DNA of 64,000 nucleotides from Candidatus Freyarchaeum deiterrae (lineage in GTDB: Archaea; Asgardarchaeota; Jordiarchaeia; Jordiarchaeales; Jordiarchaeaceae), in contig CP147778.1 in the NCBI GenBank assembly GCA_037305845.1, positions 2,560,001 to 2,624,000 on the forward strand, in the 5' to 3' direction. Shown here in pieces: positions 30,988 to 58,647 of this stretch. The translations under genes were made by a program, and so were the position numbers. The notes below the pieces were generated by a model, which was given only the letters and a program-made list of their open reading frames with translations, was not told where the DNA came from and did no database searches. The stretch's first letter is position 1. Each line of letters begins with the position of its first letter.

Positions 30988-31935
<948 letters not shown>

Positions 31936-37430: not shown

Positions 37431-38372
37431 ATGCGAGAAGGATATTATAAACGTGTAGTGGAGTTGGGAGAGTTGAAGGGTATACTCATCAATATTCTGA
37501 GTTTTAATCATCCTCATGCTGCTTCTTTGTTCTCTGAGGGACTCTGGGGTTTTCCAGATAGAAGCGTTAATAGGTCTAGGTGGGCTCACATTGAAATTGA
37601 TGACCCTGTTTTAATTTTTGGCGAACTTGAAGGTAAGCGTGGAGTTTGGTTTTCGGGAGAGATAATTGAAAAGTTTGAAGACCATAAACCAGTTAAGTAT
37701 TGGATTCAGAACCCAACCGGCTACCCCTTACAGATCAGAATTAGATTCAAGTTTCCATCAGAGAAATTGTCATCAGATACTTTGAGTAAGGTTAGAACAA
37801 TTGGTAGGGAGGAGTTATCCTCAGTCTTTGACATTAACATCTTCAAGTCTAAGACTGACCGTTGGTCACTACTCGTCTTTGGGGAGGTTAAGGAGAGAGG
37901 AATCACCTACGAATACGAACCATTTAAAGCGCTCCTAGACGAGTTTCGCACGAGGAATAAAGTCATGACTGTCGAGGAAAAGCCGGAACACGACAAGGTC
38001 AAGGAGCTAATCTACCAGATTGGAGTAATCCAGAAAAGAAATCCTGTTATGGAGTATCAAATAGACGGAAGGAGGCTCGATGTTGTTTGGAAGAGAACAT
38101 CCAAGAGTGTCCCATCGGTGGCCTTCGAAGTTCAGTTTGGGGGAAACCTCTTTGAGGTGTTGACAAAATTGAAACACGCATATGACCTCTGGAACACAAT
38201 ACCAGTCCTAATAACAACGGAGCCACAGATAGACGGAGCAAAACAATGGTTAGAAGGATCATTCCACGAATTAAAAGACGTATTCAGAATAATAGAATGG
38301 AATGAGATTAACAAATATTACAAACTTAAACAGGAGACAAAAAACTTGGAGATAAACCTAGGAATACCATAA
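37431..38372 (+). CDS. EVE/PUA-like domain + PD-(D/E)XK nuclease (putative modification-dependent restriction enzyme)
   Basis: GLWGF..W..IEIDD.VLIF...YPLQIRI (EVE-like); HDKVKE...RLDVVW...AFEVQ..G...LTKL. Confidence 0.75.
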   Translation: MREGYYKRVVELGELKGILINILSFNHPHAASLFSEGLWGFPDRSVNRSRWAHIEIDDPVLIFGELEGKRGVWFSGEIIEKFEDHKPVKYWIQNPTGYPLQIRIRFKFPSEKLSSDTLSKVRTIGREELSSVFDINIFKSKTDRWSLLVFGEVKERGITYEYEPFKALLDEFRTRNKVMTVEEKPEHDKVKELIYQIGVIQKRNPVMEYQIDGRRLDVVWKRTSKSVPSVAFEVQFGGNLFEVLTKLKHAYDLWNTIPVLITTEPQIDGAKQWLEGSFHELKDVFRIIEWNEINKYYKLKQETKNLEINLGIP

Positions 38373-40013: not shown

Positions 40014-40685
40014 TTAGATATTATTGAGATATTCTGAATATTCTGTGGGATCAGGTATTCTTGCTTCCTTGAATGCTTTTCTTCGGTTTACACATGATTC
40101 ACATTTTCCGCAATGTTTTGGTCCATTAAAATAGCATGACCATGTTAATTGGAAGGGGACACCGAGTTTTGCTCCTAATTTTAGGACTTCCGACTTTGGA
40201 ATATTACTGAAGGGGGCATCTATGTTTATCGCGGTTTCCGTTCCTAATTGTGCCGTTTTTTCAAAGGATTTGTAGAACTCTTTTCTACAGTCTGGATAAA
40301 AAGGAGCATCTGAGCCTTGTGCTCCATAGAAAACTTTTGTTGCGCCAATTGAAACTGCATAAGCAACAGCAACTGAAAGAAAAATAGCGTTTCTAAATGG
40401 AACTATGATAGGTTCGCTGAAAGATGAAGTCATGTCAATACTTTCATCACAAAGAGAGGTTACTCCAACAAATATTTCGTTAAGTGAACTTAGGTCTATC
40501 TCTTTGATTGGAATTCCAAGTTTGTCTGCTATCATTATTGCGTGCTTAGTTTCTTTCGTTGCGATTTGACCATATTTAACAGTTAATGCATATTCATTAT
40601 ATCCTTCTTTTTTTGCCCAATAGGCTAGAGTAGATGAGTCAGGTCCTCCGCTTAGCACTACAACGCATTTGTTGGCATCGCTCAT
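40014..40685 (-). CDS. queC: 7-cyano-7-deazaguanine synthase
   Basis: VVVLSGGPDS, VPFRN, YPDCR, TWSCY...HCGKCESC..R. Confidence 0.95.
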   Translation of the reverse strand: MSDANKCVVVLSGGPDSSTLAYWAKKEGYNEYALTVKYGQIATKETKHAIMIADKLGIPIKEIDLSSLNEIFVGVTSLCDESIDMTSSFSEPIIVPFRNAIFLSVAVAYAVSIGATKVFYGAQGSDAPFYPDCRKEFYKSFEKTAQLGTETAINIDAPFSNIPKSEVLKLGAKLGVPFQLTWSCYFNGPKHCGKCESCVNRRKAFKEARIPDPTEYSEYLNNI

Positions 40686-40700: not shown

Positions 40701-41123
40701 TTATATCGACCCTAGAACCTCAATCACTTCCTCTACTGATTTGTAGATGCCCCTCATCGGGACTTCTATAATTAAATTTATATCTTCTATCTTTGAAAAG
40801 GTTCGGTAGTCGGTCTTCAGTCCAATAATGGGTTTACCCAGAGCCGCTGCGTATCCGATTTCAAAGGCAACACCAGACTCGACATCTATTCCATCCAGCA
40901 CTGCAACTACTACATCACTCTTCTTAAGTGCTGTGGTGTCTGTTTTATAAATGGTGGTTTTCTCCTCCTTTGTTCCCTCGTTTATGAATAATGTCTCCTG
41001 AGCCATCCAGACCTTAAAGCCGGCGTCTCGGAGCCTTTTGACGATTTTCTCATTGAATGCTCGTTCGCTTTCACTGAACAAAGGTGAAGCTAAGAAAATC
41101 TGCATCCAAAATTCTCCTTTCAT
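40701..41123 (-). CDS. nucleoside 2-deoxyribosyltransferase family (DNPH1/NDT-like)
   Basis: IFLASPLFS..E, D...LKKSDVVVAVLDG..VESGVAFEIGYA.ALGKPI. Confidence 0.88.
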   Translation of the reverse strand: MKGEFWMQIFLASPLFSESERAFNEKIVKRLRDAGFKVWMAQETLFINEGTKEEKTTIYKTDTTALKKSDVVVAVLDGIDVESGVAFEIGYAAALGKPIIGLKTDYRTFSKIEDINLIIEVPMRGIYKSVEEVIEVLGSI

Positions 41124-41198: not shown

Positions 41199-42503
41199 TT
41201 ATTCTGATATGGGTGTTATTAAACCTTGTGATAATCGGATTTTGTCGCACCATAAAGCTGTGTTTATTAGGGTACTCATGTCGTACATGTCTACGGGGGG
41301 TTGGTTTTGCTCCGCGAGTAACAAATTTATCTCCAATAGTAATTGATTTTTAGATTTGGGTTTTTCTGGGTCTAATTTGTCGAAAAAGGTTTTGAAGGCT
41401 GGAAATTCTGAAACAATTTCCAGAAACTTTTGTTTTGCTAATCTCTCATCTGAGATTATATTTTGATAAAATTCCAAACCTTTTGGAGTTAGGTATACAA
41501 TTCCACGGGTACGTTTCAATAGACCTAACATTTTTCCGAAGCGGGTGTGATCCCCTCCACTTGTTTCCAGCTTCATGTAAACTAACGTTTGAATCGGCAT
41601 ATTATTCTCAGGACTTGAGCCCAGGTTCTTTATTAGCTCAAAAAATTTTTCTGGTACTATAAGCGGAAGTGAAGTACCCTTTCTGTCAGAACGCTCTCTT
41701 TTTTCTTTGGCGTATGAAAAGTAAAAAATAAAATTCCCAGCATCATGAATTAATTCTAAACGCGGTGGAGCATTCTCTCCGATAGATAAATACACCTCTT
41801 TACACATTTTTATTGCTGGAAGTAAAGTTTTAAGATACTTCGAAACTGTTTCTATTGTTGTATTTTCACTTTTAATGTACTTACAATTGATTTCTGTTTC
41901 TACTTGGAAATCCCCCTGAGAGGCTTCTAATGTTAGAATTTGTTTATCCGATTCCCCGTTACTTGTAATCTTTATCTCGTCCGAGATCGCAGTAACTTGA
42001 GATAGTGCATCGTAAAAAACACCTGCATTCACGTAAGCCTCGCTCAGGTAAGCGTGCTCCTTCGGATCTGGAATTATGGGCTCTGCTATGTAATTCCATT
42101 TAATTCGGTATTTAGTTAGAAGATTTGTGGTACTTCCGCTTAAAACTAATTCATTCTCATTGAAATCAATTTCAAGACTCTTAGCTCTTCTTAGTTGTGG
42201 TAGTATCTTATCTAAAAGAGAAACATCAATGATGTAGTGAGAACTATCTTTAACTTCAAAAGTACTTGATAAATCCGAGCTAGAAACAAAAAAGCTCTTC
42301 TTAAAATTAACATCAGCATAACAATAATTATGAGGATCAATACCCCTTAGGCGTATACCGTCCTGAGTTGCGGAAAATTCAGCATTCTGCAAGAATTTAG
42401 TAATATATTCAAGAATATACAAAAAGAAGTTTTTGTCCTTAACATGCAGAACTGTATCTCTCATGAGAGCCATCCATGCCCACCAACTTCTTTCGAAGCG
42501 CAC
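41199..42503 (-). CDS. PCNA (sliding clamp)-like domain fused to C-terminal winged-helix domain; start possibly at 42473 or 42464
   Basis: AEFSATQDGIRLRGIDPHNYCYADVNFKKSFF, IDVSLLDKIL, YLKTLLPAIKMCKEVYLSIGENAPPRLE...GNFIFYF match the PCNA pattern; tail has LGLL...VYLTPKG. Confidence 0.78.
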   Translation of the reverse strand: MRFERSWWAWMALMRDTVLHVKDKNFFLYILEYITKFLQNAEFSATQDGIRLRGIDPHNYCYADVNFKKSFFVSSSDLSSTFEVKDSSHYIIDVSLLDKILPQLRRAKSLEIDFNENELVLSGSTTNLLTKYRIKWNYIAEPIIPDPKEHAYLSEAYVNAGVFYDALSQVTAISDEIKITSNGESDKQILTLEASQGDFQVETEINCKYIKSENTTIETVSKYLKTLLPAIKMCKEVYLSIGENAPPRLELIHDAGNFIFYFSYAKEKRERSDRKGTSLPLIVPEKFFELIKNLGSSPENNMPIQTLVYMKLETSGGDHTRFGKMLGLLKRTRGIVYLTPKGLEFYQNIISDERLAKQKFLEIVSEFPAFKTFFDKLDPEKPKSKNQLLLEINLLLAEQNQPPVDMYDMSTLINTALWCDKIRLSQGLITPISE

Positions 42504-42504
42504 T

Positions 42505-43563
42505 TTAAATTATTTCAGAAATTTGATACATACGCTTTTTTAACTTTGCATATTCCCACAAGTATTTAAGACTAGAAACTTTCTTGGTTCCGTCAGGATT
42601 CATGGAAAATATTCCATCAATATATTTCTCATACTCATCCTCCCCGATGCTGAGTAGAATCTGCGCATTTTGAGCCTCCATTTTCATAACATACTCATTG
42701 TGAATAGCTCGGGCAGTCCAATCATTAAACAATCTTTCAGGCTCTGATCTACATATAGGGCAATCACAACTGCTCTGTAAAGCTTTAACCTGCGCAGGCC
42801 CCCTATTGTTGTTACTCTTTCCTCCAAAACTAGCAATTCCATAACCACAATAATATTCACCAGTTCCCGGAAAAATCACATTACCATAAGCCGCTTTACG
42901 CCTGTACCCCGAAGAATCGGTGCTATCCGCACCAAGATAGTAAGTAAGATGCAATGTCAAAGGCGAAGAACCAGTCCCGAGCAAATGTACCTTAAAATCA
43001 GTTAGCCGCCTCACCCCAGATATAGCTAACGAAAACATATCTATGAGTTCTTTCCTAGGTTGGCGATCCCCAAAAAACCCAGTAAAATCAGAAAAATCTG
43101 AACTCACGATACTACCGAGAGCAATCATATCACTATCAACATTTTTCTGCATCCATTCCAGATTATCGTATAAAGATTTCTTACTCCAGGAATGAACAGA
43201 AGGAACTAAACGCCCACGAAGAGTCGTACAATCCTGCCAATAAAGTATATTTTCTCTAGTTTTAAACCACAAATCTTTCATATGGGAAACAGAATCCCCC
43301 GGAGAAAAAGGAAAGTCCAAAGGAATAGCATAAACAGGATTAAATGACTCCTGAACCGCAACCACACGATTACGATCTAGATCTATCCCCTGCATTCGTG
43401 CAGTGAACGCTCCATTATCCAAAAATAAATTCTCAGTCCTATAATTTAGAGACGGAGAAATATCTTTGTAGTAATTAAATACCGAATCCATGACAAAATC
43501 TTTTTCTCGATTTTTAATTACTGGGTCCTTCTGCTCACCAATCCAAAGTATCTTCGACTCCAT
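42505..43563 (-). CDS. tRNA-guanine transglycosylase-like (TGT/DpdA-like) protein
   Basis: LFLDNGAF, IPLDFP, PSVH, IALG, VHLLG, GADSTDSS...A.YG, CDCPIC...HN zinc site. Confidence 0.85.
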   Translation of the reverse strand: MESKILWIGEQKDPVIKNREKDFVMDSVFNYYKDISPSLNYRTENLFLDNGAFTARMQGIDLDRNRVVAVQESFNPVYAIPLDFPFSPGDSVSHMKDLWFKTRENILYWQDCTTLRGRLVPSVHSWSKKSLYDNLEWMQKNVDSDMIALGSIVSSDFSDFTGFFGDRQPRKELIDMFSLAISGVRRLTDFKVHLLGTGSSPLTLHLTYYLGADSTDSSGYRRKAAYGNVIFPGTGEYYCGYGIASFGGKSNNNRGPAQVKALQSSCDCPICRSEPERLFNDWTARAIHNEYVMKMEAQNAQILLSIGEDEYEKYIDGIFSMNPDGTKKVSSLKYLWEYAKLKKRMYQISEII

Positions 43564-43614: not shown

Positions 43615-45198
43615 TTAAAATTTCTTCATCTCCTCTATAACATCTGGCGTATATCCTCCATGTTCTGTTAATCTTTTTGTATTAATCATAACAGTAAAAG
43701 ATAATGGAACAGCGCTACCGAAAATATAAGCTTCCCCAGGACTTAATGATTTGATCTCTTCCAAATCCTCATCAGTAACATGCTCTGATATAGCCCTAAC
43801 ATATCTTTGGTCATCAGGATTTGTTAAACGTAAAATAATTTGTGTATTGCATTGAGAAAGGACATCACTGTCAACTCTGCTTGGACGCTGGCTTACAATC
43901 CCTAATCCCATCATAAACTTTCTTCCTTCTTGAGCAATTCGTTTTAAAGATGGTTTTGATGCAGTCATTTCTCCACCCGAGGGCATAAATCTATGAGCTT
44001 CTTCAAAAATTGTTAAAACAGGTGGAATTTCATCTAGCATTCTCCCTTCCAATATTTTATTAGCAACTATTGCTATGAGTGCTTGTTGAAAAATCAGCTC
44101 CATCCCCGACATATCGATTATTGTTAACTGTCCTTTCTTTACTAGTTCCAAAATTTTAATAACCGGTTCACCAATATCTTTACGAATAAAGGGAGCTTTA
44201 TCATAAAGTAATTCTAATTTTGTATTTAAGATATGAGGAGAAGCCTCTCCATAAACTACCCTTCCTGCAACTTCACTCAGTTTATTTTTAATTTTTTCTA
44301 TATCTGTTGTGCTTCTTAGATCTGGATCTTTATGAATTGCTGACCAACCAGCTTGTAAAATTCTCCTCTGAGCCTCAGATATATCATGCAATTTTTCTAA
44401 TAAATAGATTATTTGATAGGTTTCCAAATCCCCCAGATTAACGCAAAGCCTTTGACTCTTTCTATCTTTATGAAACTTATTCTCGAATCTCTTATCTAGC
44501 AGTTTTTTAACTTGCTCAGCCGCTGTCACATAAATTTTTGTTTTATTAATAACTTTTTTAGAATCTGAGTTTCCTGCTCCACGTTCGCAGCACAGAGAGC
44601 TATACTCCCCATGAGGATCAAAAATAATTATAGGAATGTCATACTCCCTTGCTATCTGTTCAATAATAACAGCAACAGCCCAAGATTTACCCATTCCCGT
44701 CATTGCTAATACACAAAAATGTTTAGTCAATATTTCATTAAGATCTAGATGCACATCTATATTTTCGTTCATTCTAAAGCTCCCAATTACTATACTTTTG
44801 TTTAATGGTTTAATTTGTTCTTTTAAGAAATTTTCATCTGCAACAAACACCTTTTCTCCAATAGAGATTGGAGTCCTTGGTCTTCTAAATATAGTTCCTT
44901 GCCTTCTACCAATAATCTCAATTTCTCCTACTATGTAATCCTCAAACTCGCCCCGTATTCCTATACTTTTAGCATTAATATCCGTTTTAGACTCATATAG
45001 ACTTGATAACTGAACTGCACTATCTTGGTCAATAAGATAATTTCTCCTGTTAATAGAGATGATTCGCCCTAATTGTTTAGTCCCGTCTGCATTTATCTCT
45101 ACTAGCTCCCCAACACGTACATGACCTCCCGGTTTAGTAGAGAACTTAATTCGAGATATGGAAGGTGTCTCGAAAACAGTACCTATAAATGAACTCAT
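43615..45198 (-). CDS. herA: HerA family ATPase/helicase
   Basis: N-terminal HAS-barrel-like region, HFCVLAMTGMGKS, IFDPHGEY, EEAHRF, EGRKF..G...SQRPS, SQCNT. Confidence 0.92.
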   Translation of the reverse strand: MSSFIGTVFETPSISRIKFSTKPGGHVRVGELVEINADGTKQLGRIISINRRNYLIDQDSAVQLSSLYESKTDINAKSIGIRGEFEDYIVGEIEIIGRRQGTIFRRPRTPISIGEKVFVADENFLKEQIKPLNKSIVIGSFRMNENIDVHLDLNEILTKHFCVLAMTGMGKSWAVAVIIEQIAREYDIPIIIFDPHGEYSSLCCERGAGNSDSKKVINKTKIYVTAAEQVKKLLDKRFENKFHKDRKSQRLCVNLGDLETYQIIYLLEKLHDISEAQRRILQAGWSAIHKDPDLRSTTDIEKIKNKLSEVAGRVVYGEASPHILNTKLELLYDKAPFIRKDIGEPVIKILELVKKGQLTIIDMSGMELIFQQALIAIVANKILEGRMLDEIPPVLTIFEEAHRFMPSGGEMTASKPSLKRIAQEGRKFMMGLGIVSQRPSRVDSDVLSQCNTQIILRLTNPDDQRYVRAISEHVTDEDLEEIKSLSPGEAYIFGSAVPLSFTVMINTKRLTEHGGYTPDVIEEMKKF

Positions 45199-45206: not shown

Positions 45207-46331
45207 CTATAACCTTTCATGAAATTTTTCCTCATAAAGCAAATGATAATATTCTGGTAAATCCTTCCTTGTAAAATTTTTTAGAAGCTGTATAATTCTA
45301 TGTGCACTTTTCTTCCTTAATTGCACTTTCATGTGTGCAGCAAATAACGGCAGAGGATATCCCGGTCTCAGAGAAAAATAACTAAAAGATGTAAATAGTT
45401 GAAGGATTTGGTCCAGTTTGTGTTTAAAAAATCCTGGAATTTCTATAAAAAATGGTTTTTGATTTGTATTTATTTTGATATACATACCTATTATATTACC
45501 TTGAAGCATTTCAATGGGAACCTCAGAACGTAAAGATTGAGTTACTTCAACATATTTTGTTCTTTTAAGATTTTTATCCTTAAATAAGTATTTAATCATG
45601 CTATATTCTGAAACTTGAGAATACTCTCCATTTGGTTTCCATTTTGAAATAAGTTCCTCCATTGATTGAATATCTTCGTCTGTGAATTCATTCTTCGAAT
45701 TTCCATTGCTAAGAGATTTGACTAGTGATAAAAAATATTTATTAGCTTGACTGTCTTTCACAACAGCAATAACTGGTATATCTTCATCCTTAAGATAGTT
45801 GAAGAATTCTGTTGAAACCTTAACATATTCATCATGAACCTCATTTATCCATGGTACTCGATCCACATGTTCAAAAAGAGCGTTATCGGGAAATGTAATA
45901 GTTCCATCAAGGAAAACCAACTTTGGAAAATTACCACTTTTATTTAATTCTTCTAAAACACTATGGGTTATTTGATATTCAAGTGTCTTCATAGATACCG
46001 AATTCACTAAACTGGAATAATATGGTGGTATAATCGATATTTTGGGTAGGTATCTTTCTATACAACCTTTTGTAAAATATGCATAAGCTACAGCTAATAA
46101 AATTGAAGTAGCCTCATACTCTTCTTGATAACTCCCACCATCAGCTGCAACTACATTAGTCTCTAAATCTTTCAAATCTGGTTTAGGTCCGTCTACTATA
46201 ATGTCGGGAATTAATTCTTTCGCGTCTTCCTCAATCTTGTGAAAAATCTCTTTAATTTTTACAAGCTCATTATACCTTCGTTTTGATATTTCACTTATAT
46301 AGCCATCAACTTCAGTTTCATATGAACTCAA
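45207..46331 (-). CDS. nurA: NurA family nuclease
   Basis: VAADGGS, FLDGTI, AVVKDS, GYPLPLFAAH; immediately upstream of herA. Confidence 0.87.
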   Translation of the reverse strand: MSSYETEVDGYISEISKRRYNELVKIKEIFHKIEEDAKELIPDIIVDGPKPDLKDLETNVVAADGGSYQEEYEATSILLAVAYAYFTKGCIERYLPKISIIPPYYSSLVNSVSMKTLEYQITHSVLEELNKSGNFPKLVFLDGTITFPDNALFEHVDRVPWINEVHDEYVKVSTEFFNYLKDEDIPVIAVVKDSQANKYFLSLVKSLSNGNSKNEFTDEDIQSMEELISKWKPNGEYSQVSEYSMIKYLFKDKNLKRTKYVEVTQSLRSEVPIEMLQGNIIGMYIKINTNQKPFFIEIPGFFKHKLDQILQLFTSFSYFSLRPGYPLPLFAAHMKVQLRKKSAHRIIQLLKNFTRKDLPEYYHLLYEEKFHERL

Positions 46332-46335: not shown

Positions 46336-46944
46336 TTACCTCCTTAGCATATTAACTATAGGTCTGAGGTGCGGATACTTATCAAGAATAGTTTTTTTAT
46401 TGTTTTCAATAAACGTTAAAACTTCTTCGAGTTTACTTTTCGTTATCTTAACTTTTTTGCTCCAGTTTTCATCAAATACATGGCTATTTAAGTATTTTAT
46501 AAAAAACTCATGTAATTCCTCATCATCCCTAAGCCTAATAAGTATATCCTCAATCTTAATTTCAATTATAGAATCAATTCTCTCTTTGATTGGTTTTTCT
46601 ACTTTGGGAACTGTGGAATATTTGGTACCATGCTTTTTTCGTAACTCTGATAAAATTGCTTTATACTCATCTCTATTAGCAGTTAATACATCATGGAAAA
46701 CAATAGGTGTGACAATATTGTTTTTCTCGTCTACGAATCCAATATCCACATTATACGGGCTTATTATTTCTTTTACTTTTTCATGTATAATCTCACCTAT
46801 ACTTTCAATTGTATACGTCTTGTTGCCAATCTTTAATTCAATTTGTTTCCAACCATAATTTATAGATGGATGATCTAAGGGAGTTAGTAAAATTTTATTT
46901 TCAAATGTTTCATTAAAACTCTTTAAAAAAATAGGTTCACTCAA
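46336..46944 (-). CDS. hypothetical protein in the operon
   Basis: Overlaps the upstream ATPase stop; 4-nt gap to nurA. Confidence 0.75.
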   Translation of the reverse strand: MSEPIFLKSFNETFENKILLTPLDHPSINYGWKQIELKIGNKTYTIESIGEIIHEKVKEIISPYNVDIGFVDEKNNIVTPIVFHDVLTANRDEYKAILSELRKKHGTKYSTVPKVEKPIKERIDSIIEIKIEDILIRLRDDEELHEFFIKYLNSHVFDENWSKKVKITKSKLEEVLTFIENNKKTILDKYPHLRPIVNMLRR

Positions 46945-49900
46945 GATGCCACCTTCTCTCTTATGATTTTATATCTAATTTCTTGTTTCTTTTTTATAGA
47001 ACCTCCATCTCTGAATTCACTTGTTATTGTATTTCTATAAAGTAGTCCGTCATTAAATATCTCTTCGATTTTACTTGGTTTACATTTGAGATTCCTAATT
47101 ATATTTTTAAGATCATCTTGAGCAAAATCATCATTCTTTCCATTTTTTAGTAATGCCTCAAGTAATATGTATCTATTTTCAGGTAAATTTTGAATTAAAT
47201 AAAGATATTTTTCAAAGTTGGTAGTGCCTTTACATTCCATATTTTCTGATAAGTATTTCTCCCATTCGGGATATCGAACGAATAATTCATTAATTTCAGA
47301 AACCATTTTCTCTATAGACATTAGAGTATCTTCATCACAATTTCTCTTGAGAAAATCCACATAATCTTTAAGAAGAAATAGATCTGATTTAGCCAATTCT
47401 CTTAATCTTGATTTTTCCAAACTACCATTCAGTTTCCCAGGATATTTTATTTCCAAATCTTTTAATATTTCATCTTCCCTGCGGGGCTGAGAAATGTCAA
47501 CTCTTATGCTTTCATATTTTTTCCACTGTTCATAAATATTTAAAGCGGTGTTAAATTCCACTATAGTTTCTGATAAAAATTTTTCCGCTTCTTGTAATAT
47601 TTCGTATCCTCTTTCCAATTCTTTTTTAATAGTTTCCAATGTAGATCTAAGTAACATGACATTATCTGTTTTGAAAAATAAATTATAAATTCTTGTAGAT
47701 AAATCTTCTACAGTTTTTTTGTTCATTGAATTAGAAACAAGACAAAGTTTTACTGCAATTTTTTGTGACCATGCCTGCAAGAAATTATCAGAGGGTAAAT
47801 TATACTCCTTTAGGGTATCTTTAATTTTGGAAAGCTCCTCTTTCTCCTCGGATTTTTTAATTTCAAAATTTATAAGATTGGTATCTGCGAGTTTAATTCC
47901 TTCTACTATTTCTCTTAAAAGTAAGTCATTAACATTTTGATGAATTTTCTTTATCTCTTGGACAAGGTCATCATCAGGTTTAACATAAAAATCTGAAATT
48001 TTATCTATTATATACGAAATTCTCTTATTATAAATACTTTTTTTATTGTAATCCATTTTAGAAAAATCTTCAGAACTAATGTCGTCTAATTCTAGCTTTA
48101 ATTTACCTAATATTGTTTTTTCAGCTTTGGACAAAGTAGCGCCAGGTATATCCTCCTTACTAATATTTTTTATTAATTCTAAAGCTTGAGACAATAAATT
48201 ATTGGGGCCAATTAACTTAATTCTCTCATCTTTAATTTCTATTAACTTTCTAGTAGTTAAAATTTTAGAAAGAAATTCATATTGTTGAATCCTAGAATAT
48301 GAAGTAAAGTATTTTTTCACAGAATTTTTAAATTCATCTACCCGAACCTCTTCTTCTCTAAAAAGAGAGAGAAATTGTTTTTCGTACTTAGAAACTTTGG
48401 AACCAATAATTTTACCATTCTCAGCTAATTCCATAAACTCCGAAAGGGTTTCAATTGCTAAATTACGCAAACCACCATCAACAGCTTTTTCAACAGTACC
48501 GATTTCCCCACCTAAATTACCTCCTTCTATACATATAGAAGAATAGGAAGAACTTTCTCTTTCAAATTGCCTTTTAAGTTCAACTTGAAGAGAACGGTCA
48601 ATATCCATAGAAACAGCATCAAATAATATCCCTTCGCTTTGCTTAATTTTTTCTTGTAACCCTGTAAAGGGGATAGTAAAACCTTTCTCAACTGCCTCAT
48701 TAATATATGTGCTGACAGAATCTCTTATAATTTTTTTAATAACATCTATGTTAGAATTAAGTATTTCACCAAGACCTTTTTTATCAAGTTTTTCGATAAA
48801 AAGACGATTTTCCATTTTACGAATCGCTGTTGCTGCTTCTCTTTTAGGCTCAGTAGTGTATGGATCTAAAACTATAATCCCTAAATCTGCTTTAATACCC
48901 TCAAGTTCAACTTTGATTTCATTTACATAGCTATCTATGAAATCTGAATATTTTTCAGGATGATAAAAAATGGCTACTTCATATACGACCTTTGAATCAG
49001 GAATTATTTCAAATTCTCCATCAATATAAGAATAACTGATGGATGTATGAGTGCAAGTCCGTTTGCTATATCTTAATTCATTTCTAATTATCTCTTGAAC
49101 ATTTTCATGTTTCAAAATCGGATCTTTATCCATATATTCTTTAATTTTTTCCGCAAATTTTGATTCTATTTCAGGAGAAAACCCGTATATCTTTTTTAGA
49201 TACTCGTCTGAAATTCTAATCACTCGAATTATACCAAATTCGTCATCTAGGTACTTCCTAAGATCATCATCCGCAATGTCAACGAATAGTATATAATAAG
49301 CTTCTCCATTGTGAAAAATTCTTTCTTTTTCTAGACCCTGAAATTTCTCTTTTAAAGTAGGGTTTATTTCAAGTTCCTTTAATTGAATATTGTACTGATT
49401 ACATTGAATTAGTATTGCCTCTCTTCTTATTGCATGTTCAAATTTTTCTATAATATCTTTATACTGATTCGGAAGATCTTTTATAATATGCCATTTTGGA
49501 TTAAATAATAAATAATAAAATAATTCTTTTGTTTTTTCATCGAAAGCTGTTACTATATTTCTCAAAAACGCGGGGTCTTTTAATGAAACGCTTACATCTC
49601 CTACTTTAATCTCAGGATTTTTATTAATTAAAACCTCTTTAATTTTATTAATATCAATTTTTTTGCCTTCTTTCCTCCAAAGATTCTCAAAAAGCTCAAA
49701 AAATATTTGAACGTAGGTTCGTGGGTTTTTCTTATTTACGCCTACTCTCCCTTCGTGTACACGGGGTGTAATAGCAAAAATAGAATTTATTACGCTTTCA
49801 TCAAAAAAATCTTCTATTTTATAACCTTCGCTCTCCATATATCTTCTAATTATCTCGTACGCAGAAAAATAGTCTAGGTCTCTTAAATCATATCTCTTAA

Positions 49901-50498
49901 CGACTACTCTTTCAGTAACATCTTCACGTGCTCTTTTGGAAACTTTTTCGTCTTCTGTTAGTCCGCTGATTACGTCAAAATAATATTTAAATGTTTCAGG
50001 ATGTAATGATAAAAGCAAGACAAAATATTTGTTACTATCTATTTTTTCTATTTTATTATCAACAAGAGATCTAAGGTCGTTTAAAAATTTTTTTTCTTCA
50101 TCTGATAATGTTGATTCTTCGCCTTCTCTCTTTTCTATTAGTTTTTGTGCTTCGTCTAAAAAAATTAATATTCCACTTTCTTTTTGTTTAGCTTGATTAT
50201 AAGCTTTTTGTAGAATATCTGCCAAATCTGGAATTTTGTCCAAATCCTTATATATAACTTCTAGTTTACCCCATCCACCCTCATCTTCACTCTTACTGAA
50301 TTTTTCTCTTAACTCTTCTATAATAGTTGTTTTTCCTTGACCATATTCTCCTATAATATTGATTATAATTAGCTGTCTTCCTGCATTGTTTTTTATTAAT
50401 TCTTTAATCTCTTCGAGTTCTAGATCATATCCTACTGGGGATATCTTTTTACCTCCAGGTGCCCCAACTTGGGGAAAAGGGTTTGGTATTTTTCTCAT
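46941..50498 (-). CDS. large P-loop ATPase (N-terminal AAA/BrxC-like domain, long helical C-terminus)
   Basis: NPF near N-terminus, Walker A GEYGQGKT, Walker B LIFLDEAQ, NPR. Confidence 0.82.
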   Translation of the reverse strand: MRKIPNPFPQVGAPGGKKISPVGYDLELEEIKELIKNNAGRQLIIINIIGEYGQGKTTIIEELREKFSKSEDEGGWGKLEVIYKDLDKIPDLADILQKAYNQAKQKESGILIFLDEAQKLIEKREGEESTLSDEEKKFLNDLRSLVDNKIEKIDSNKYFVLLLSLHPETFKYYFDVISGLTEDEKVSKRAREDVTERVVVKRYDLRDLDYFSAYEIIRRYMESEGYKIEDFFDESVINSIFAITPRVHEGRVGVNKKNPRTYVQIFFELFENLWRKEGKKIDINKIKEVLINKNPEIKVGDVSVSLKDPAFLRNIVTAFDEKTKELFYYLLFNPKWHIIKDLPNQYKDIIEKFEHAIRREAILIQCNQYNIQLKELEINPTLKEKFQGLEKERIFHNGEAYYILFVDIADDDLRKYLDDEFGIIRVIRISDEYLKKIYGFSPEIESKFAEKIKEYMDKDPILKHENVQEIIRNELRYSKRTCTHTSISYSYIDGEFEIIPDSKVVYEVAIFYHPEKYSDFIDSYVNEIKVELEGIKADLGIIVLDPYTTEPKREAATAIRKMENRLFIEKLDKKGLGEILNSNIDVIKKIIRDSVSTYINEAVEKGFTIPFTGLQEKIKQSEGILFDAVSMDIDRSLQVELKRQFERESSSYSSICIEGGNLGGEIGTVEKAVDGGLRNLAIETLSEFMELAENGKIIGSKVSKYEKQFLSLFREEEVRVDEFKNSVKKYFTSYSRIQQYEFLSKILTTRKLIEIKDERIKLIGPNNLLSQALELIKNISKEDIPGATLSKAEKTILGKLKLELDDISSEDFSKMDYNKKSIYNKRISYIIDKISDFYVKPDDDLVQEIKKIHQNVNDLLLREIVEGIKLADTNLINFEIKKSEEKEELSKIKDTLKEYNLPSDNFLQAWSQKIAVKLCLVSNSMNKKTVEDLSTRIYNLFFKTDNVMLLRSTLETIKKELERGYEILQEAEKFLSETIVEFNTALNIYEQWKKYESIRVDISQPRREDEILKDLEIKYPGKLNGSLEKSRLRELAKSDLFLLKDYVDFLKRNCDEDTLMSIEKMVSEINELFVRYPEWEKYLSENMECKGTTNFEKYLYLIQNLPENRYILLEALLKNGKNDDFAQDDLKNIIRNLKCKPSKIEEIFNDGLLYRNTITSEFRDGGSIKKKQEIRYKIIREKVAS

Positions 50499-51308
50499 TT
50501 AATCCCTCCATTTTAATAAGGTGAATGCGGCTGGAATGGGTGGCTTAGGGAGTCCTCCAAGAAAAGTTATTTTTTCTTCTTTGTATAATTCGATTAATTT
50601 TTGAAAAATAAGTGGTATATTTAACTCTTCCTTTGTACCTGTATAAAATTCATGATAATTATTAATTAATTTTTGACATATAACTTTTGTTAACTCAAGC
50701 TCGGTTTCTTTTAACAGCCTTTTAACCAGTTTTTGAAATTTATCTTTATCAAATTTTAATTTATATTCATCAGAAATTTTGTAATAATCACTATCTTCTA
50801 ATTCAATTACACCAAGATTTTTAAAACAATTAAAAGTATTATCGAAACTTATTCTATCATATATTCTAACTCCAAAATCTTTAGAAGAATTCTCAACTAG
50901 AAACTCGAATAATTCCTCTTTTGTGAATTTATAGTAACTTTCTCTCAAGATAATATTGTAAGCATAATTATACCAAAAAATTCCTGAATATAATGCATCA
51001 TGAAGAAATCTGCATTTCCTACTTACTTCATCAATTTCTAAGTAATGTTCACCATTATCGGTAAGGGTATATTGCTGTTGAGCTTTTTTAGCGTCAGGAT
51101 TTTCTAAATTAATAAAACCAATTTTTTTTAAAAACTCTAAATGACCATCTCTTGTCTTTGCGTCAAATCCATTTTTGGGAATATTCTCTTTAAACTCTTT
51201 TTTTCCAGATTTATTATCAAGATGTTGAAGAATTTTTTCGATATAATCCTTCCAATCTTTTACTAACATTATAGACCATGTAGTATGCAAATTATGCCGC
51301 ATCCCCAA
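50499..51308 (-). CDS. winged-helix repeat protein (DUF4007/BrxA/Mrr-N-like), first gene of the operon
   Basis: HLEFLKKIGFI...YTLTDNG...RFLHDAL...Y...FTKEEL...FKNLGVI; abuts the ATPase start. Confidence 0.65.
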   Translation of the reverse strand: MGMRHNLHTTWSIMLVKDWKDYIEKILQHLDNKSGKKEFKENIPKNGFDAKTRDGHLEFLKKIGFINLENPDAKKAQQQYTLTDNGEHYLEIDEVSRKCRFLHDALYSGIFWYNYAYNIILRESYYKFTKEELFEFLVENSSKDFGVRIYDRISFDNTFNCFKNLGVIELEDSDYYKISDEYKLKFDKDKFQKLVKRLLKETELELTKVICQKLINNYHEFYTGTKEELNIPLIFQKLIELYKEEKITFLGGLPKPPIPAAFTLLKWRD

Positions 51309-52200
51309 TTAATTCTTAAATATAATTTTTCTATATCTTTTGATATTGCTTTTAGTTATTAATTAATACATCTTTCCATTTTTGTTGGTCAAATATAAAT
51401 ATATTTTCTAGATTTATATAAAAATTGTGTAAATTTCTTAACGAAAGTTAAATATGGGAGTATATGATATGATACGCTATTTTTTAGGTAATTTGATAAA
51501 ATAATATATAATTTAAGTAATTAGCATGGGTGATTTTACAACTGTCCGTAGCCTTTCCACCTAATTTTCTTATTTTAAAAATAGACATATTTTTTTTAAA
51601 AAAATACGAGCATTAAAATGTTGATATTTGTAGTTTTTAGTTGTAGCAATTTGTGTATCTTGGCTGGTTTTTAGGATTGCTCTCAATTTTTGCTCCCTTG
51701 TTTGAATAACATTTAGGTTTGTTCTAATTTTCCTTTTAGCAATTTTTATAGTGATTGCGTTTGCTATTCGGATAAACATCTCTTAAGCATTTAAAGTAAT
51801 AGTAGTGATTTTAATAATGGGTACCATACATTTAATTGTACGTTTTGCTGTTCTATGGTTGAGTAATTACACGGGTTGTAGGTAGGATTTTGGGCATTCT
51901 TCGATTGGGGTGAGTTTTTCTATTCTTAGGGCTTTGTCGAGTGGCGAGTTTGTTTGGTCTAGTCATTCTTCTTCTAGGAGGGTTCTCTTGGTTTTTTCAT
52001 AGTTGTTTCTGTTAGTTGAGTCCGGAGTAGTTTAGGAGGCTGTGTGTGGCTTCTATTTTGGTGATTTGTTGTAGACAATTAAATCTATAAAATCTTCGTC
52101 TTTTTCCTCTTTCTCTTTTTCGGCTTATGAAGTTTTGTAGATAAACGTATTATATTTTTTATCATTTGATAATATGTCTAAAAAGTGAATTAGGTGAGGG

Positions 52201-53067
52201 TTGATGGAATTCTTAAGTCAATCCTGGTGCGATTTAGAATGGATGTCTTGGATTCGATTTAAGAGGGCAAATATCCTTTTTCAGGATATTCCTAAAGTTC
52301 CTGGGTTTTATCGTGTTAAACCTGTTGATAGAGAAATACTTGTGTATGTCGGTCAGACAGGTCGCGATTTAAGAGAACGAGTCTCTGCTTTGTGTCATAA
52401 CACACTGGCTACTAAAATGCCCTTTAACGATCCTCATACAGCAGCCTCAGGTCTCTGGGCATGGAGAGATTCGGAAGGAATGGAATTTGAGTGTTCTGTA
52501 GCACCAACTAACTTTTTGAAAAAAGAGAGACTAGCATTTGAGTGTTATCTTTTATGGCGGTACCGTTTGGAAAAAGGAGAATCAACGTTATGCAATCATG
52601 GTCGGTTCCATCCTCATTATCGCAAATCTCGTCCAAAATCAAAGGGTGATCGGGGTGGTCGATTGCCAGAGGGTAAGTTAAATCCGAATGGTGGTCCAAG
52701 TTTACCACCATTAATTTCAAAGGGAAAATCAATAGACTCCAATTGGATGGGTCTTAAATGGAGTGAGGCAAAAAATTTCGTAATCGAAGAAATTAGGAAT
52801 ACTCCTAATTCTCAATGCTTATACAAGATTATGAATCAGGACGCAAAGGAATTACTTTACATCGGGCAATCACAAAATTTAAGAAATCGCTTATCGTACC
52901 ACCTCCGAGAAAATTGGATAAACCCCACTATTAAATATTCTTTCTCCGAGTTATCTCATTCAAGCTTTAAATATCAACTCAGAGAGCTGGAGAACGACTT
53001 GATTGGAAGTTATTACGATCAAACCAAATCTGCTCCAAAATTTCAATTTTTAAAATATAATCAATAA
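52201..53067 (+). CDS. tandem GIY-YIG nuclease-domain protein
   Basis: PGFYRV...YVGQTGRDLRER and CLYKI...LYIGQSQNLRNRL...ELE. Confidence 0.8.
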   Translation: MMEFLSQSWCDLEWMSWIRFKRANILFQDIPKVPGFYRVKPVDREILVYVGQTGRDLRERVSALCHNTLATKMPFNDPHTAASGLWAWRDSEGMEFECSVAPTNFLKKERLAFECYLLWRYRLEKGESTLCNHGRFHPHYRKSRPKSKGDRGGRLPEGKLNPNGGPSLPPLISKGKSIDSNWMGLKWSEAKNFVIEEIRNTPNSQCLYKIMNQDAKELLYIGQSQNLRNRLSYHLRENWINPTIKYSFSELSHSSFKYQLRELENDLIGSYYDQTKSAPKFQFLKYNQ

Positions 53068-53113
53068 CATAAGTAGGAAGAAATAGAATTGATTTCAAAA
53101 TGAATCTAGATTT

Positions 53114-53281
53114 TTATAGTGAGTGTAAGTATTCTTCTATTCTTTTTACTCCTTCTTGTATGTCTTGCATGGATGTTGCGTAGCTTATTCTGAGGTGTCC
53201 TTCTCCGTTGGTTCCGAATACGCTTCCCGGTGTTAGTGATACTCCCTTGTTTTGGAGTAGTTTTTCTGCGAGTTGTGATTG
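53114..53281 (-). pseudogene. 3' fragment (copy 3) of the aminotransferase at 59815..61008
   Basis: SQLAEKLL..KGV..TPGSVFG.NGEGHLRISYATSMQDI.EGVKR.EEYLHSL. Confidence 0.88.
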
Positions 53282-53302
53282 GACTAATGGAGAGAGAAAC
53301 AT

Positions 53303-53626
53303 TCATTTAATATCCTTTTCTAAGATTTCAAAGATGCGTCGAACATTCCTTTTTGTTCTTCCATATGCTGCGATGTTAGTCCATAGTTTCGGCTTTGATT
53401 TCACATAAACTTGCGATCCTCCATCTTCCTCGCGGTTTACTGTCACTTCAATGAGGTGGCCCCACGACCAATGAGTCATAGGTGTAGAAAATTTTAATCG
53501 TTTATTAGTTTCGTTCACAATTTTTACCTTGAATCCAGCGTCTTTAACTATTTTCTTAAGTTTTTCGAAAATTATCTCTGGATGGGTCTTATAATTCCTT
53601 GCTTCTTTAATAGAAACAATCTTCAC
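53303..53626 (-). CDS. hypothetical protein (DUF1499-like alpha/beta)
   Basis: 107-aa ORF; its 5' part is duplicated and degenerate at ~56005..56148. Confidence 0.6.
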   Translation of the reverse strand: MKIVSIKEARNYKTHPEIIFEKLKKIVKDAGFKVKIVNETNKRLKFSTPMTHWSWGHLIEVTVNREEDGGSQVYVKSKPKLWTNIAAYGRTKRNVRRIFEILEKDIK

Positions 53627-54176
53627 ACTCTCAAATCAAAGGGATTTTCTACAAATCGGACATATTCCTAACTTTTATTACAAATAGTATCATATAAAAT
53701 GGAATTAAACCATGTTGTATTCGTTCGGAAGAGAAACTGTTCTCTGTTCTCTTAAATTACGTTTCCCATTTGAATTTGAGCATCTTTGTCACTCGTTAAA
53801 TTTTATATCTAATTTCCTCAATATTTTGCTCTAGTTTTGGACAAAATTAGTAACTCTTTCTTCTTAAAGGACTTTCCATCGCTGGGGGTTGAGTTTAAAC
53901 AGCGCACCCTAATCGTATCCCGTTCAGCATCCCCCTTATAAACACTACCACCTCAAGGACGCAGCCACCCCATCCCCCATGATGATCACACTTACAACCC
54001 ACTCGATAGAACTCCGAAGAACCCAAGCTTAAAAGAAGAAGCCCTCTACTCGGAAAAAGGACAAACACGCCTCTCTTTACTTTTAAACGAATACTTTATC
54101 CCGATTAGGTTTAAAAAAAGTGGACAGCATAAAAAAGTTTGACGACAACAAAGACGGAGAAATGTGGTGCTAAACA

Positions 54177-55409
54177 GTGCTGGAAACGATCACGGTGACC
54201 AGAACGGAGCAAATCCACCTCAAGCCCAGCAACATCCTGAGCAGACTGTGCCATTATTCCAAAAACCTCTACAACCAAGCAAACTACATCACCAGACAAA
54301 CCCTCCTCAAAACCGGAAAATGGATGAGATACGAGGAACTCGCGGGAGCGCTTAAAAACTCTGAGAGCTACAAAACCCTACCAGCACAAACCGCCCAGCA
54401 AACCCTGAAAACACTAGACAGGAGCTGGAAAGCGTACTTCAGAGCAACGGAGGAGTGGACTAAAAACCCGGACAAGTTCCTTGGGAGACCGAAGATGCCC
54501 GGGTACAAGGAAAAAAACGGAGAACACATCCTAATCTTCACAAACCAACAGTGCCGAATAACTGGCGGAGAAATAAAATTTCCCAAAAAGGCGAACCTGA
54601 ATATTAGGGTTAAGACGCGGCTGGACGACGAAACACCTCTCAGGGAGATCCGAATAGTGCCCAGGGGCTGGGGCTACGTCTTGGAGGTGGTCTACCACAA
54701 GACCGTCGTGGAGCCGCAGAAAATACTGGACCGGGACAGAGTGGTGGGTGTGGATTTGGGATTGAGGAACACCGTAACCATGGTAAACAACATCGGAGAG
54801 AAGCCGATTGCTGTTAAGGGCGGTGCCCTGAAGTCCATAAACCAGTACTACAACAAGGAGAGAGCGCGGCTGCAGAGCATCTACGACCGACAGAAGATTA
54901 AGACTAGTGGCTCTCTGCTTCTTAAGCTTACCGAGAGGAGGAACCGGAAGATACACGACTTCTTCCATAAACTGAGCCGCGTAATCGTGGAGTGGTGCGT
55001 AGGACACGATGTGGGCACCATTGTGGTCGGCTATAATGGCGGTGGCTGGAAGCAGAGTCCGCGTCTCGGGCGGAGGAACAATCAGAACTTCGTTCAGATA
55101 CCCTTCCAGAAGCTTCTGCGGCAGATCCGTTACAAGGCTGAAGAGGCGGGAATAACCGTATTGGCACGAGAGGAGAACCACACCTCAAAGTGCAGCTTCC
55201 TGGACCTTGAACCAGTGGAGCACCATAAGGAGTACGCCGGTAGGCGAATAAGTCGGGGCATGTTCCGATCGAATAAGGGAGTGGTAATCAATGCGGATGT
55301 GAACGCCGCCTACAATATTATAAGGAAGGCATTCCCGGAAGCTTTCACAGCGGACGGGATAGAGGGTGTGGGGCTTCACCCGGCTAGAATGGATTTAAAC
55401 ACATTCTAG
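54177..55409 (+). mobile_element. tnpB: IS200/IS605-family TnpB (solo, IS1341-like)
   Basis: SKNLYN, LPAQTAQQ, PKMPGY, GVDLG, HKLSR, YKAEEAGI, EENHTSK, INADVNAAYNI; GC-richer than flanks. Confidence 0.92.
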
Positions 55410-55434
55410 CAAAGGGGCTTTGAAGGAAGAGCAA

Positions 55435-55776
55435 CTAATTTTGTTCCAAAGCTTTTTGCTCTGTAATCTCTATATGATCTCTTTTTTCCCTCTCGCTTAT
55501 TTGGGTTTCAAATCGGATTTCGAGGACATAATCACAGAAAACTTGGTGAGGGTCGTCCTCAGATTCAATGATCATCCACCCAAATCCTCCTTCTCCATAA
55601 TGAACCACCTTGTTCTCACTGAAAAATACTCGTTTGCCACTCCTAATGTAAGCTTCCGCTACTTTGCGAAGGAAATGGATATATTTTTCCGCAATCTTCC
55701 TCTCTTGTTCCTCAACAAATTCCTCAGTCTCCTTCCATAGAGTCTTTAAATCTTCCATGTATCTATTTCCTTCCAT
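55435..55776 (-). CDS. hypothetical protein
   Basis: 113-aa ORF coupled to the upstream ORF. Confidence 0.6.
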   Translation of the reverse strand: MEGNRYMEDLKTLWKETEEFVEEQERKIAEKYIHFLRKVAEAYIRSGKRVFFSENKVVHYGEGGFGWMIIESEDDPHQVFCDYVLEIRFETQISEREKRDHIEITEQKALEQN

Positions 55777-55966
55777 TAAGCTCTTTTTCTTTTATAAAAT
55801 CCTCAAGTTCTGTGTTAAACCTGTTTCTAAAAGCTTCTTGTGCAAGTTCCTTAAATTCGGGGAAGTTTTCACAGAATAACTCTAGCAAACTTGACACGCA
55901 ATACTCGCATCCACCATCGGCTGCAAGCAATATTCTTACAACTTTCTCTGCTTCCTTTCTGTTCAT
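55763..55966 (-). CDS. small hypothetical protein with CxxC
   Basis: ADGGCEYC; overlaps the next gene. Confidence 0.6.
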   Translation of the reverse strand: MNRKEAEKVVRILLAADGGCEYCVSSLLELFCENFPEFKELAQEAFRNRFNTELEDFIKEKELNGRK

Positions 55967-56004
55967 AACAGAACCTCTACTCTAAATCCCTTACAAACTA
56001 CTTC

Positions 56005-56148
56005 TTTACCTTGAATCCAGCGTCTTTAATAACTAGTTTCTTAAGTAAGTTTTTCGAAAATTGTCTCTGGATGGGTCTCTTATAATTCCTTGCTTCTTTA
56101 ATAGACATATCTTCGCACTCTCAATTCAAGAGATTTTCTACAAATCGA
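56005..56148. repeat. degenerate duplicate of ~53524..53658
   Basis: tttaccttgaatccagcgtctttaa...ttttcgaaaatt.tctctggatgggtct...gattttctacaaatcg. Confidence 0.8.
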
Positions 56149-56208
56149 ACAACTAAATCTTATTCAAAAGCGAAAAATAAATAGGTATTTCTGCATAAAC
56201 AATTAATT

Positions 56209-56376
56209 ATGAAGAGAATCGTTCAAGTCAGAATCTATAAGGGGGAGAAATACTACGTTGCCGAATGCCTTGATTTACCTGTTGTTACCCAAGGAAAAAC
56301 ATTAGATGAAGTCGTGGAGAATGTTAGGGAAGCAATCGAACTTCATTTGGAGGGCGAGGACAAGAATGAAAACTAA
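56209..56376 (+). CDS. HicB-like antitoxin (short)
   Basis: Manual translation YYVAECLDLPVVTQGKTLDEVVENVREAIELHLE. Confidence 0.85.
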   Translation: MKRIVQVRIYKGEKYYVAECLDLPVVTQGKTLDEVVENVREAIELHLEGEDKNEN

Positions 56377-56692
56377 GACTATACGATTGCCTGAAGAAAT
56401 CCTGAGGGGTGTGGCTTACAGGGCGGAGAAGGAGGACATAGAGGAATCAACTGCGATCCGAAAACTTCTAAGAGAGGGAATAATGGAATACGCTACAAAA
56501 CTGTACAGTTTAGGAGAGATCACTCTCGGAGAGTCTGCGCAACTTGCGGGAGTTAGCCTGAGAAAAATGCTGGAAACACTCCTGAACAAGGGTGTACGCG
56601 GAAACGTGACTCTGAGTCAGCAGAAAAAGGCCATCGCACACGCAAAAATAACTCAAATAAATACCCGCTCAGCACGATGCCAACTGAATTAA
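56366..56692 (+). CDS. UPF0175-family antitoxin, copy 1
   Basis: TIRLPEE...STAIRKLL...LYSLGEITLGESAQLAGVS. Confidence 0.8.
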   Translation: MKTKTIRLPEEILRGVAYRAEKEDIEESTAIRKLLREGIMEYATKLYSLGEITLGESAQLAGVSLRKMLETLLNKGVRGNVTLSQQKKAIAHAKITQINTRSARCQLN

Positions 56693-56766
56693 GGGAATAT
56701 TATGGTTCTTTGGAAGGGGCGATAGTCTTAAATATTGGGAATTTTTTTGGTAAATTGGTGGGAAAA

Positions 56767-57463: not shown

Positions 57464-57475
57464 GAAAGGAAGCAT

Positions 57476-57556
57476 TTAGTATTTATTGTATTTATGTAAC
57501 TCGTTGGTGATCGCTAATGTGAGGAATCCTGTGTCGAAAATATACTTGCTCGCCAT
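57476..57556 (-). pseudogene. truncated PIN toxin N-terminus
   Basis: MASKYIFDTGFL... stops after 26 aa. Confidence 0.5.
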
Positions 57557-58607: not shown

Positions 58608-58647
58608 CGGGATAGTTTTTTAAATTCTGTAGGTGCTTGGTGTTAGT

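Follow-up and report, generated by a model that had tools for sequence, protein, structure and literature searches.

Among the systems close to the locus described here is the bacterial Dpd system (DpdA-K), in which the transglycosylase DpdA has a histidine (His181) at its base-reading position and depends on the ParB-like ATPase DpdB, for which encirclement of DNA is predicted (PMC10164549). BRIGADE (10.1101/2025.09.15.676423) is an archaeal Dpd-like system with a YprA/DpdJ helicase, a PLD nuclease, DpdG, a BrxC-like ATPase and deazaguanine genes; it has been reported only in halophilic archaea, usually with two helicases, and no PCNA appears in the text and supplements examined. BREX-Related Capture (BRC; PMC12839542) brings together a TGT, HerA/FtsK, a BrxC-like ATPase and a BrxA-like winged-helix (wHTH) protein, and it is defined by PglZ, DUF6079, a STAND NTPase, DUF4007 and GNAT, with no PCNA or NurA in the paper. 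Type IV CBASS (Cap9/Cap10; 10.1101/2025.04.06.647259) places QueC and a TGT-fold protein in a defence setting, and Cap10 keeps the catalytic aspartates of the fold with a lysine at the base-reading position. A paper on Dnd/HerA capture contains no TGT, NurA or clamp. The literature searches returned no paper linking PCNA with DpdA or with the other systems named above, with earlier mention in key reviews still possible, and no paper combining PIP, PCNA and tRNA-guanine transglycosylase.

Freyarchaeia is an Asgard archaeon with a complete genome from wetland soil (PMC11291895), for which long-read data exist, and the PacBio motifs published for it were called m4C (PMC11529989). The genome of Candidatus Freyarchaeum deiterrae is a single contig of 3,576,204 bp, and the window analysed in this work is a stretch of 64,000 nucleotides of it. 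A gene cassette in this window, all of it on the minus strand, includes the following features:

40014 to 40685, minus strand: QueC, a preQ0 synthase, above the TIGR00364 cut-off, with a second copy in the genome.
40701 to 41123, minus strand: nucleoside 2-deoxyribosyltransferase-like (NDT) gene, found in this locus only.
41199 to 42473, minus strand: accessory PCNA-tandem-wHTH fusion gene, 424 aa from ATG 42473, with the ORF reaching GTG 42503.
41202 to 41675, minus strand: tandem winged-helix region of the fusion, aa 267-424, with a BrxA/FokI/SspB-like fold (AlphaFold2 model, fold matches).
41676 to 41705, minus strand: charged low-confidence linker, aa ~257-266 (pLDDT below 50 at 260-263).
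41706 to 42455, minus strand: PCNA-fold domain, aa 7-256, one full two-domain subunit (AlphaFold2 model, structural superposition).
42318 to 42341, minus strand: PIP-pocket loop of the clamp, aa 45-52 (alignment and complex model).
42480 to 42484, minus strand: GGTGG motif before ATG 42473, seen in the sequence and putatively of ribosome-binding type.
42505 to 43563, minus strand: TGT-fold transglycosylase, 352 aa, lacking the tRNA-binding C-terminal domains (sequence and fold).
42508 to 42531, minus strand: putative PIP-like C-terminal tail of the TGT, aa 345-352, MYQISEII (complex model and family alignment).
43615 to 45198, minus strand: HerA-family ATPase/translocase, 527 aa (homology).
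45207 to 46331, minus strand: NurA-family nuclease, 374 aa (homology).
46336 to 46944, minus strand: orphan ORF of 202 aa between the ATPase and NurA, with no homologue in the other loci.
46941 to 50498, minus strand: large AAA+ ATPase, 1185 aa, related by profile to those of other cassette types, with a putative BrxC/DpdH-like role.
50499 to 51308, minus strand: stand-alone wHTH protein, 269 aa (profile comparison).

The preferred reading of this arrangement, to which a probability of about 0.68 is given, sees here an archaeal restriction-modification cassette of a Dpd-like kind not described before, in which a DNA guanine transglycosylase has the PCNA-wHTH protein as its dedicated partner subunit. 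The fusion, the folds, its fixed position behind the TGT gene, the DpdA-like active site and the swappable neighbours were established computationally. Likeness to Dpd lies in a TGT-fold enzyme with three active-site aspartates, a base-reading histidine and a zinc site, together with the DpdJ-like helicase, DpdK-like PLD protein, large ATPase and preQ0 genes of related loci. The cassette differs from Dpd in that DpdB, DpdC and DpdD were not detected, the partner is PCNA-wHTH, the TGT is nearer to archaeal TGT, the effectors can be HerA/NurA and the hosts are archaea. No ARMADA-like YprA helicase of the BRIGADE kind is present in this cassette, and the clamp loci occur in Asgard archaea, Bathyarchaeia, Nitrososphaerota and Thermoproteota rather than in halophiles. 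With BRC the cassette has in common that a TGT, a HerA-type ATPase, a BrxC-like ATPase and a BrxA-like wHTH protein occur side by side, but none of PglZ, DUF6079, the STAND NTPase, DUF4007 and GNAT had a Pfam or PADLOC match among the window genes or the recurring families. Type IV CBASS is set apart by a histidine in place of lysine, a canonical QueC and the clamp partner, and no CD-NTase was found among the window genes or the recurring families.

The fusion lies in an ORF at 41199-42503 that is open for 434 codons counted from GTG 42503; ATG 42473 is the likelier start because GGTGG is found 6 nt upstream and the homologues begin at about this point. A Pfam search of the protein gave no match. 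The original prediction had described a PCNA pattern over the first ~265 aa, and residues ~7-256 do match archaeal PCNA models over their whole length (NF002221, E 2e-18, 66 bits, which falls below the curated cut-off of 239 bits), with P. furiosus PCNA also matching the clamp domain by sequence (E 6e-9). The AlphaFold2 monomer model (pLDDT 91) revealed the expected DNA-clamp fold: comparison with PCNA gave a Foldseek E of 3e-17 and a Z of 25.5, with an rmsd of 2.5 A over 236 residues, and the superposition contains the two-domain subunit with its interdomain loop. The wHTH-like tail of ~165 aa with an LG..LT..G pattern, also proposed originally, was recovered as a winged-helix fold in which this pattern is conserved among homologues, with the correction that residues ~262-424 form two winged helices rather than one. 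Fold matches of the tail were middling for BrxA, FokI and SspB (Z 8.8, 8.6 and 8.3) and moderate for N.BspD6I and BpuJI, also among the top matches (Z 7-9); Atlas wHTH clusters match the tail likewise.

Clamp and wHTH share one frame in 41 full-length sequences (400-440 aa) from the fetched loci, in about two dozen more fusions from an independent library search (E under 1e-10, partly overlapping the 41) and in an Atlas archaeal cluster of 103 members and 414 aa. These three sets rule out a read-through artefact, which had been named as a possible objection to the fusion. The word-based protein search returned the fusion itself alone, and its relatives came from the HMMER search and the loci.

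The same genome also carries a normal PCNA of 254 aa, with 20% identity to the clamp domain of the fusion, and a normal PCNA is retained in the four named fusion-bearing genomes checked (4/4). A small Ras-like GTPase gene was observed just upstream of the housekeeping PCNA (L001:329-814). In the phylogeny, 30 housekeeping PCNAs lie on one side of a branch with SH-aLRT 100 and all accessory copies fall outside; the trees are quick IQ-TREE runs with long branches, used unrooted, with no donor inferred and a housekeeping set from one phylum, and the separation of accessory clamps from housekeeping PCNAs is the sole point taken from them. Replicative archaeal PCNAs, including extra copies such as T. 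kodakarensis TK0582, share with the accessory clamp the whole-subunit fold, the D-P-x-H pocket loop and, as modelled, PIP-type partner binding; the accessory clamp differs in its tandem wHTH, near-neutral charge and patchy distribution. Identity as a replicative archaeal PCNA, a stand-alone protein of about 250 aa, was rejected, given the fusion, the score of 66 bits against 239, the missing LAPR, the position outside the housekeeping clade and the separate housekeeping gene.

The end of the TGT gene lies 31 nt before the likely clamp start, and the pairing was found in both search directions. Among 90 TGT-family loci, which were not dereplicated, a fused clamp is found in 50; another 8 have a clamp truncated where the contig ends, 11 carry a divergent PCNA that stands alone, and no clamp is seen in the other 21, of which 9 were complete enough to score. 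In the reverse direction, the TGT stands directly before the clamp in 9/9 clamp homologues with upstream DNA, two or more of these loci overlapping the TGT-first set. The pairwise identities of TGT and clamp covary (rho 0.75), as expected for linked genes. This pairing, together with the separate housekeeping PCNA, the tree, the PIP-like tail described below and the canonical PIP boxes that clamp-less homologues have in its place, supports the earlier suggestion of a clamp repurposed to serve a base-exchange enzyme.

The modelled TGT-clamp complex reached an ipSAE of 0.61, with 0.00 for the best control. The complex runs share at least 58% of their contacts with partner pLDDT of at least 80, and the mark used for the complex score is reached by 58 of 80 solved pairs and by 2 of 110 mismatched pairs; the score may owe something to memory of solved PCNA-PIP structures. 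The tightest modelled contacts join TGT residues 345-352 with clamp residues 45-52, 137, 236 and 251-256, the known PIP-box binding site of PCNA. The loop at 45-52 (family consensus IDPHDFCY), touched by the TGT tail in the model, is the best-conserved stretch of the clamp domain. The complex model thus has the Tyr-variant PIP tail of the TGT bound in the PIP pocket of the clamp, in agreement with the proposal that a PIP-like motif might be found in an operon protein such as the TGT at its C-terminus. The first winged helix also contacts the TGT barrel in the model and its recognition helix is turned towards the TGT, an orientation that is hard to reconcile with sequence reading by this first wHTH.

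The sequence of the tail, a line of evidence independent of the complex model, points in the same direction. A Tyr-type tail with the consensus Y-x-R-I-S-x-x-L-F, a pattern defined on the fused set itself, ends 41 of the 45 distinct TGTs paired with a fused clamp and is absent from all 9 clamp-less homologues. A canonical QxxLxxFF-type PIP box, with a background of 9/2188 ORF ends in the genome, was found in 4/9 clamp-less, 2/11 solo-clamp and 3 distant Asgard TGT homologues; these canonical boxes are spread over three separate clades, and 5/9 clamp-less homologues lack one. One TGT homologue nested among the fused systems has lost both clamp and tail, and a small clade (L065, L067, L072 and L076) keeps a divergent fused clamp with the TGT tail absent. 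Fisher tests on tail type were set aside because the sequences are related, and the association of tail and clamp comprises only 1-3 phylogenetically independent contrasts, so few that an independent-pairs test is powerless. DNMT1, UNG2, archaeal UDG and EndoMS are base-modifying or base-excising enzymes tethered to the housekeeping clamp by a PIP box, whereas the cassette enzyme would come with a private clamp and a variant motif fitted to it. Binding of T4 glucosyltransferase to gp45, considered as a precedent, is disputed and was dropped. A coupling of modification to replication, also raised in the original prediction, fits the clamp-less homologues with canonical PIP boxes better than it fits this locus, where a private clamp would, if anything, separate the enzyme from the replisome.

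Whether the clamp domain forms a ring is where the strongest alternative enters. It states that the clamp no longer encircles DNA and serves either as a scaffold or, like UL42 of herpesviruses, as a processivity factor in monomeric form, presenting winged helices that read the target, and it departs from the preferred reading only in how the tether works. No clamp loader genes were found in the loci; the GDTG turn and the C-terminal LAPR motif of housekeeping PCNAs are lost, with F-S-x-K-K standing in the place of L-A-P-R; and the clamp domain is more basic, with a median net charge of +1 against -15 for housekeeping PCNAs. The resemblance of the wHTH pair to the recognition domains of FokI, BpuJI and N.BspD6I points the same way, as does its variability, with a mean identity of 38%, about as variable as the clamp (59% for the TGT). 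However, the two-domain subunit is still complete, its four helices all present and bearing basic residues; in the 11 solo-clamp loci an accessory PCNA lacking wHTH holds the same position; and the canonical PIP boxes of clamp-less homologues imply that this role is filled by a true ring. A monomeric tether is regarded as rather unlikely, though it keeps appreciable weight.

Relatives of the cassette occur in Bathyarchaeia, Nitrosopumilus and other Nitrososphaerota, Thermoproteota and Lokiarchaea. The cassette has a GC content of 33% against 41% for the genome, it was not found in 5 genomes of the same genus, the fused clamp was not found in the 300 genomes of the phylum searched, and integrases and transposases lie near some loci; the cassette behaves as a horizontally moving island. 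A search for TGT relatives in viral contigs gave none.

Three cassette types were distinguished. The commonest contains an ~800-aa AAA ATPase, an ~315-aa protein, a DpdJ-like helicase, an ~730-aa protein and a DpdK-like PLD protein; the type of this window has the wHTH protein, an ~1190-aa ATPase, NurA and HerA; and the third has HerA, an ~1450-aa protein, NurA and an ArcS-like DUF5591 gene. The ATPases of the cassette types are related to one another by profile (98% and 76%), and in HHalign the 269-aa wHTH profile matches both the wHTH tail of the clamp (96%) and the ~315-aa proteins found in helicase-type cassettes (92%); direct BLAST of the clamp tail against the 269-aa protein gave nothing, and only the profiles match. 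DpdJ-like (E 2e-57) and DpdK-like (E 7e-9) genes, both below the model cut-offs, are present in most fused loci and absent from the locus of this window. DpdG/H/I models gave no match, the DpdB motif DGQ[HQ]R was found in no ORF of the 90 loci, and the recurring families matched neither DpdB nor DpdC. The only DndB-like gene of the genome lies 2.3 Mb from the cassette. Along the TGT tree the effector type switches 5 times. The TGT-clamp pair is the part of this defence-type cassette that stays constant while the effectors are exchanged.

Genes for deazaguanine synthesis vary among the loci, with QueC present in several related ones, and the genome encodes MptA/FolE2, QueD and the second QueC; QueE was sought in the genome and not clearly found. 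The NDT gene is not counted among the core components of the cassette and is possibly a local add-on, since it occurs only in this locus and has a 78% identical paralogue elsewhere in the genome. This paralogue sits in a second defence-like island (L155, G000:C1:249142-257000) with a DndB-like gene, a BglII-family endonuclease and Vsr.

A second alternative inverts the target: the pair would act on invader DNA, the TGT excising or swapping guanines or modified deazaguanines while the clamp-wHTH tracks along it and HerA/NurA or the helicase/PLD module destroys it, and in one variant the clamp could act as a sensor that is loaded onto foreign DNA during its replication. The same anatomy fits this proposal, many loci have no preQ0 genes (QueC is missing from most), and TGT homologues also adjoin ordinary DNA methylases, which could be the true self mark. 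Against it, QueC, QueT and ArcS-like DUF5591 genes recur beside the pair, as expected for deazaguanine insertion, and a constant pair with swapped effectors, often encoded on the opposite strand, is the usual layout of modification versus restriction. Action on invader DNA is given a low probability, well below that of the monomeric tether.

Several variants were observed among the TGT homologues. Seven loci (L007, L069-L071, L075, L078 and L079) carry a Thermoproteota-type, very basic stand-alone accessory PCNA (median net charge +11) and a short TGT tail ending in Y-x-P-I, together with DUF5591, HerA, the ~1450-aa protein and NurA. In another Asgard genome (G086, L160:7690-10104), two tandem distant TGT homologues, both with terminal canonical PIP boxes, adjoin a methylase-like gene and an ATPase. 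In G074 (L159:8032-16416), a distant TGT homologue is accompanied by an N6/N4 methylase, a UvrD helicase and a YprA/MrfA-type helicase of 1588 aa, making up another Asgard defence cassette that is not yet catalogued. A distant TGT subfamily without PIP tail or clamp (L097-L103) is present in 5/5 genomes of one Asgard genus in a housekeeping-like context.

The TGT of the cassette is a TIM barrel with catalytic and base-binding aspartates and a CxCxxC...H zinc site, and residues D49, D83, D216 and H124 as well as C266/C268/C271/H288 are invariant in 68 aligned close homologues. The base-reading column holds His124 here and Gln in the tRNA TGT of the genome; its equivalence to His181 of DpdA was obtained via alignment to archaeal TGT and spacing, rather than by direct superposition. 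In the fold ranking, archaeal tRNA TGT comes first (Z 26.3), followed by bacterial and eukaryotic TGT, DpdA (19.2) and Cap10 (18.0), and the best sequence match is likewise archaeal tRNA TGT. The DpdA models of PADLOC and NCBIfam gave no match at E 0.1. The enzyme is thus assigned to a separate subfamily, being closest to archaeal TGT by fold and matching no DpdA model. Identity as an archaeal tRNA TGT (TgtA) was rejected on a score of 26 bits against the TIGR00432 cut-off of 350, a length of 352 aa and the replacement of Gln by His.

The Cap10 match, the catalytic aspartates that Cap10 also keeps and the presence of QueC in the operon are the grounds for a third alternative of the type IV CBASS kind, in which QueC would put a deazaguanine on a protein N-terminus and the TGT would bind or transfer that protein, with the clamp as carrier or co-factor. 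This is very improbable, since the QueC scores above the canonical TIGR00364 cut-off and most loci lack it, the base-reading residue is His and not Lys, the loci contain no cyclase, the clamp N-termini have no conserved Gly-rich start and the modelled contact runs through the TGT C-terminus, away from the active site. Least credible of all is a second tRNA-modifying TGT with a DNA repair or regulatory clamp fusion merely travelling along, for which the archaeal tRNA TGT matches and the housekeeping repair relatives of HerA and NurA speak, and against which stand the genome's own normal tRNA TGT of 540 aa, the lack of the C-terminal tRNA-binding region in the cassette TGT, the patchy, AT-rich and horizontally spread cassette with DpdJ/DpdK-like genes and the PIP-type tail.

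For the DNA guanine transglycosylase with its dedicated clamp, the following mechanism is proposed. The TGT would dock onto the PIP pocket of the clamp by its C-terminal Tyr-variant tail, as modelled, and the clamp domain, probably as a ring and possibly as a basic monomer, would hold the enzyme on double-stranded DNA together with the winged helices, both of which may help to pick the target site. At this site the enzyme would swap guanine for preQ0 supplied by QueC, and the mark would shield self DNA while the ATPase-wHTH-HerA-NurA module destroys unmarked DNA, a restriction role that the DpdJ/DpdK-like helicase and PLD nuclease would play in other loci. The clamp would thereby do the work that falls to DpdB, with its predicted encirclement of DNA, in bacterial Dpd systems. 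With Tyr replacing Gln in the tail and F-S-x-K-K replacing L-A-P-R in the clamp, the PIP code is altered in a way that would insulate the pair from host PCNA, and this insulation would let the cassette move between archaea. A tentative evolutionary scenario, held at slightly less than even odds, is that mobile archaeal defence cassettes captured a PCNA, fused it to wHTH and re-coded the interface, giving an orthogonal clamp that replaces DpdB in an inserter of 7-deazaguanine into DNA that is independent of the host replisome, while sister systems use the host PCNA via a canonical PIP box.

Other features of the window and the cassette borders were also recorded. Just upstream of the cassette, ~450 bp (51619-52070) contain no long ORF and have copies with 70-73% identity elsewhere in the genome and in four genomes of the same genus; this segment is possibly a non-coding element or a gene remnant. 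A GIY-YIG nuclease gene (52201-53067) is divergent from the cassette, and a TnpB/IS605 gene with flanking inverted repeats is located at 54177-55409. Local duplications at 53107-60107 comprise three copies of an aminotransferase 3' fragment (~300 nt each), two copies of a 293-nt segment and a small gene region duplicated 2.5 kb apart. On the other side, an unassigned nuclease-like ORF (37431-38372) has one homologue, in L039, and a perfect (AAC)x104 tract at 31286-31598, encoding a poly-Gln run within the ORF 30988-31935, could have arisen through misassembly or gap filling.

Sliding clamps count as core components of the replication machinery, and the extra PCNA copies of archaea are mostly unexplained. 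The locus is real, conserved and apparently undescribed, probably a variant of 7-deazaguanine defence whose distinctive part would be a private sliding clamp. If the scenario of clamp capture and re-coding is true, this would be the first chromosomal deazaguanine restriction-modification system in archaea outside halophiles, and no dedicated sliding clamp would have been known from a prokaryotic immune system before it. It also makes testable why bacterial DpdA needs the ATPase DpdB but phage DpdAs do not, and a PCNA able to replace DpdB would mean that the role of DpdB is topological tethering. The family offers three natural states, namely the host clamp used via a canonical PIP box, a private stand-alone clamp and a private wHTH-fused clamp, a series suited to the study of how clamp-partner specificity evolves, and the orthogonal clamp/peptide pair could serve as a tool.
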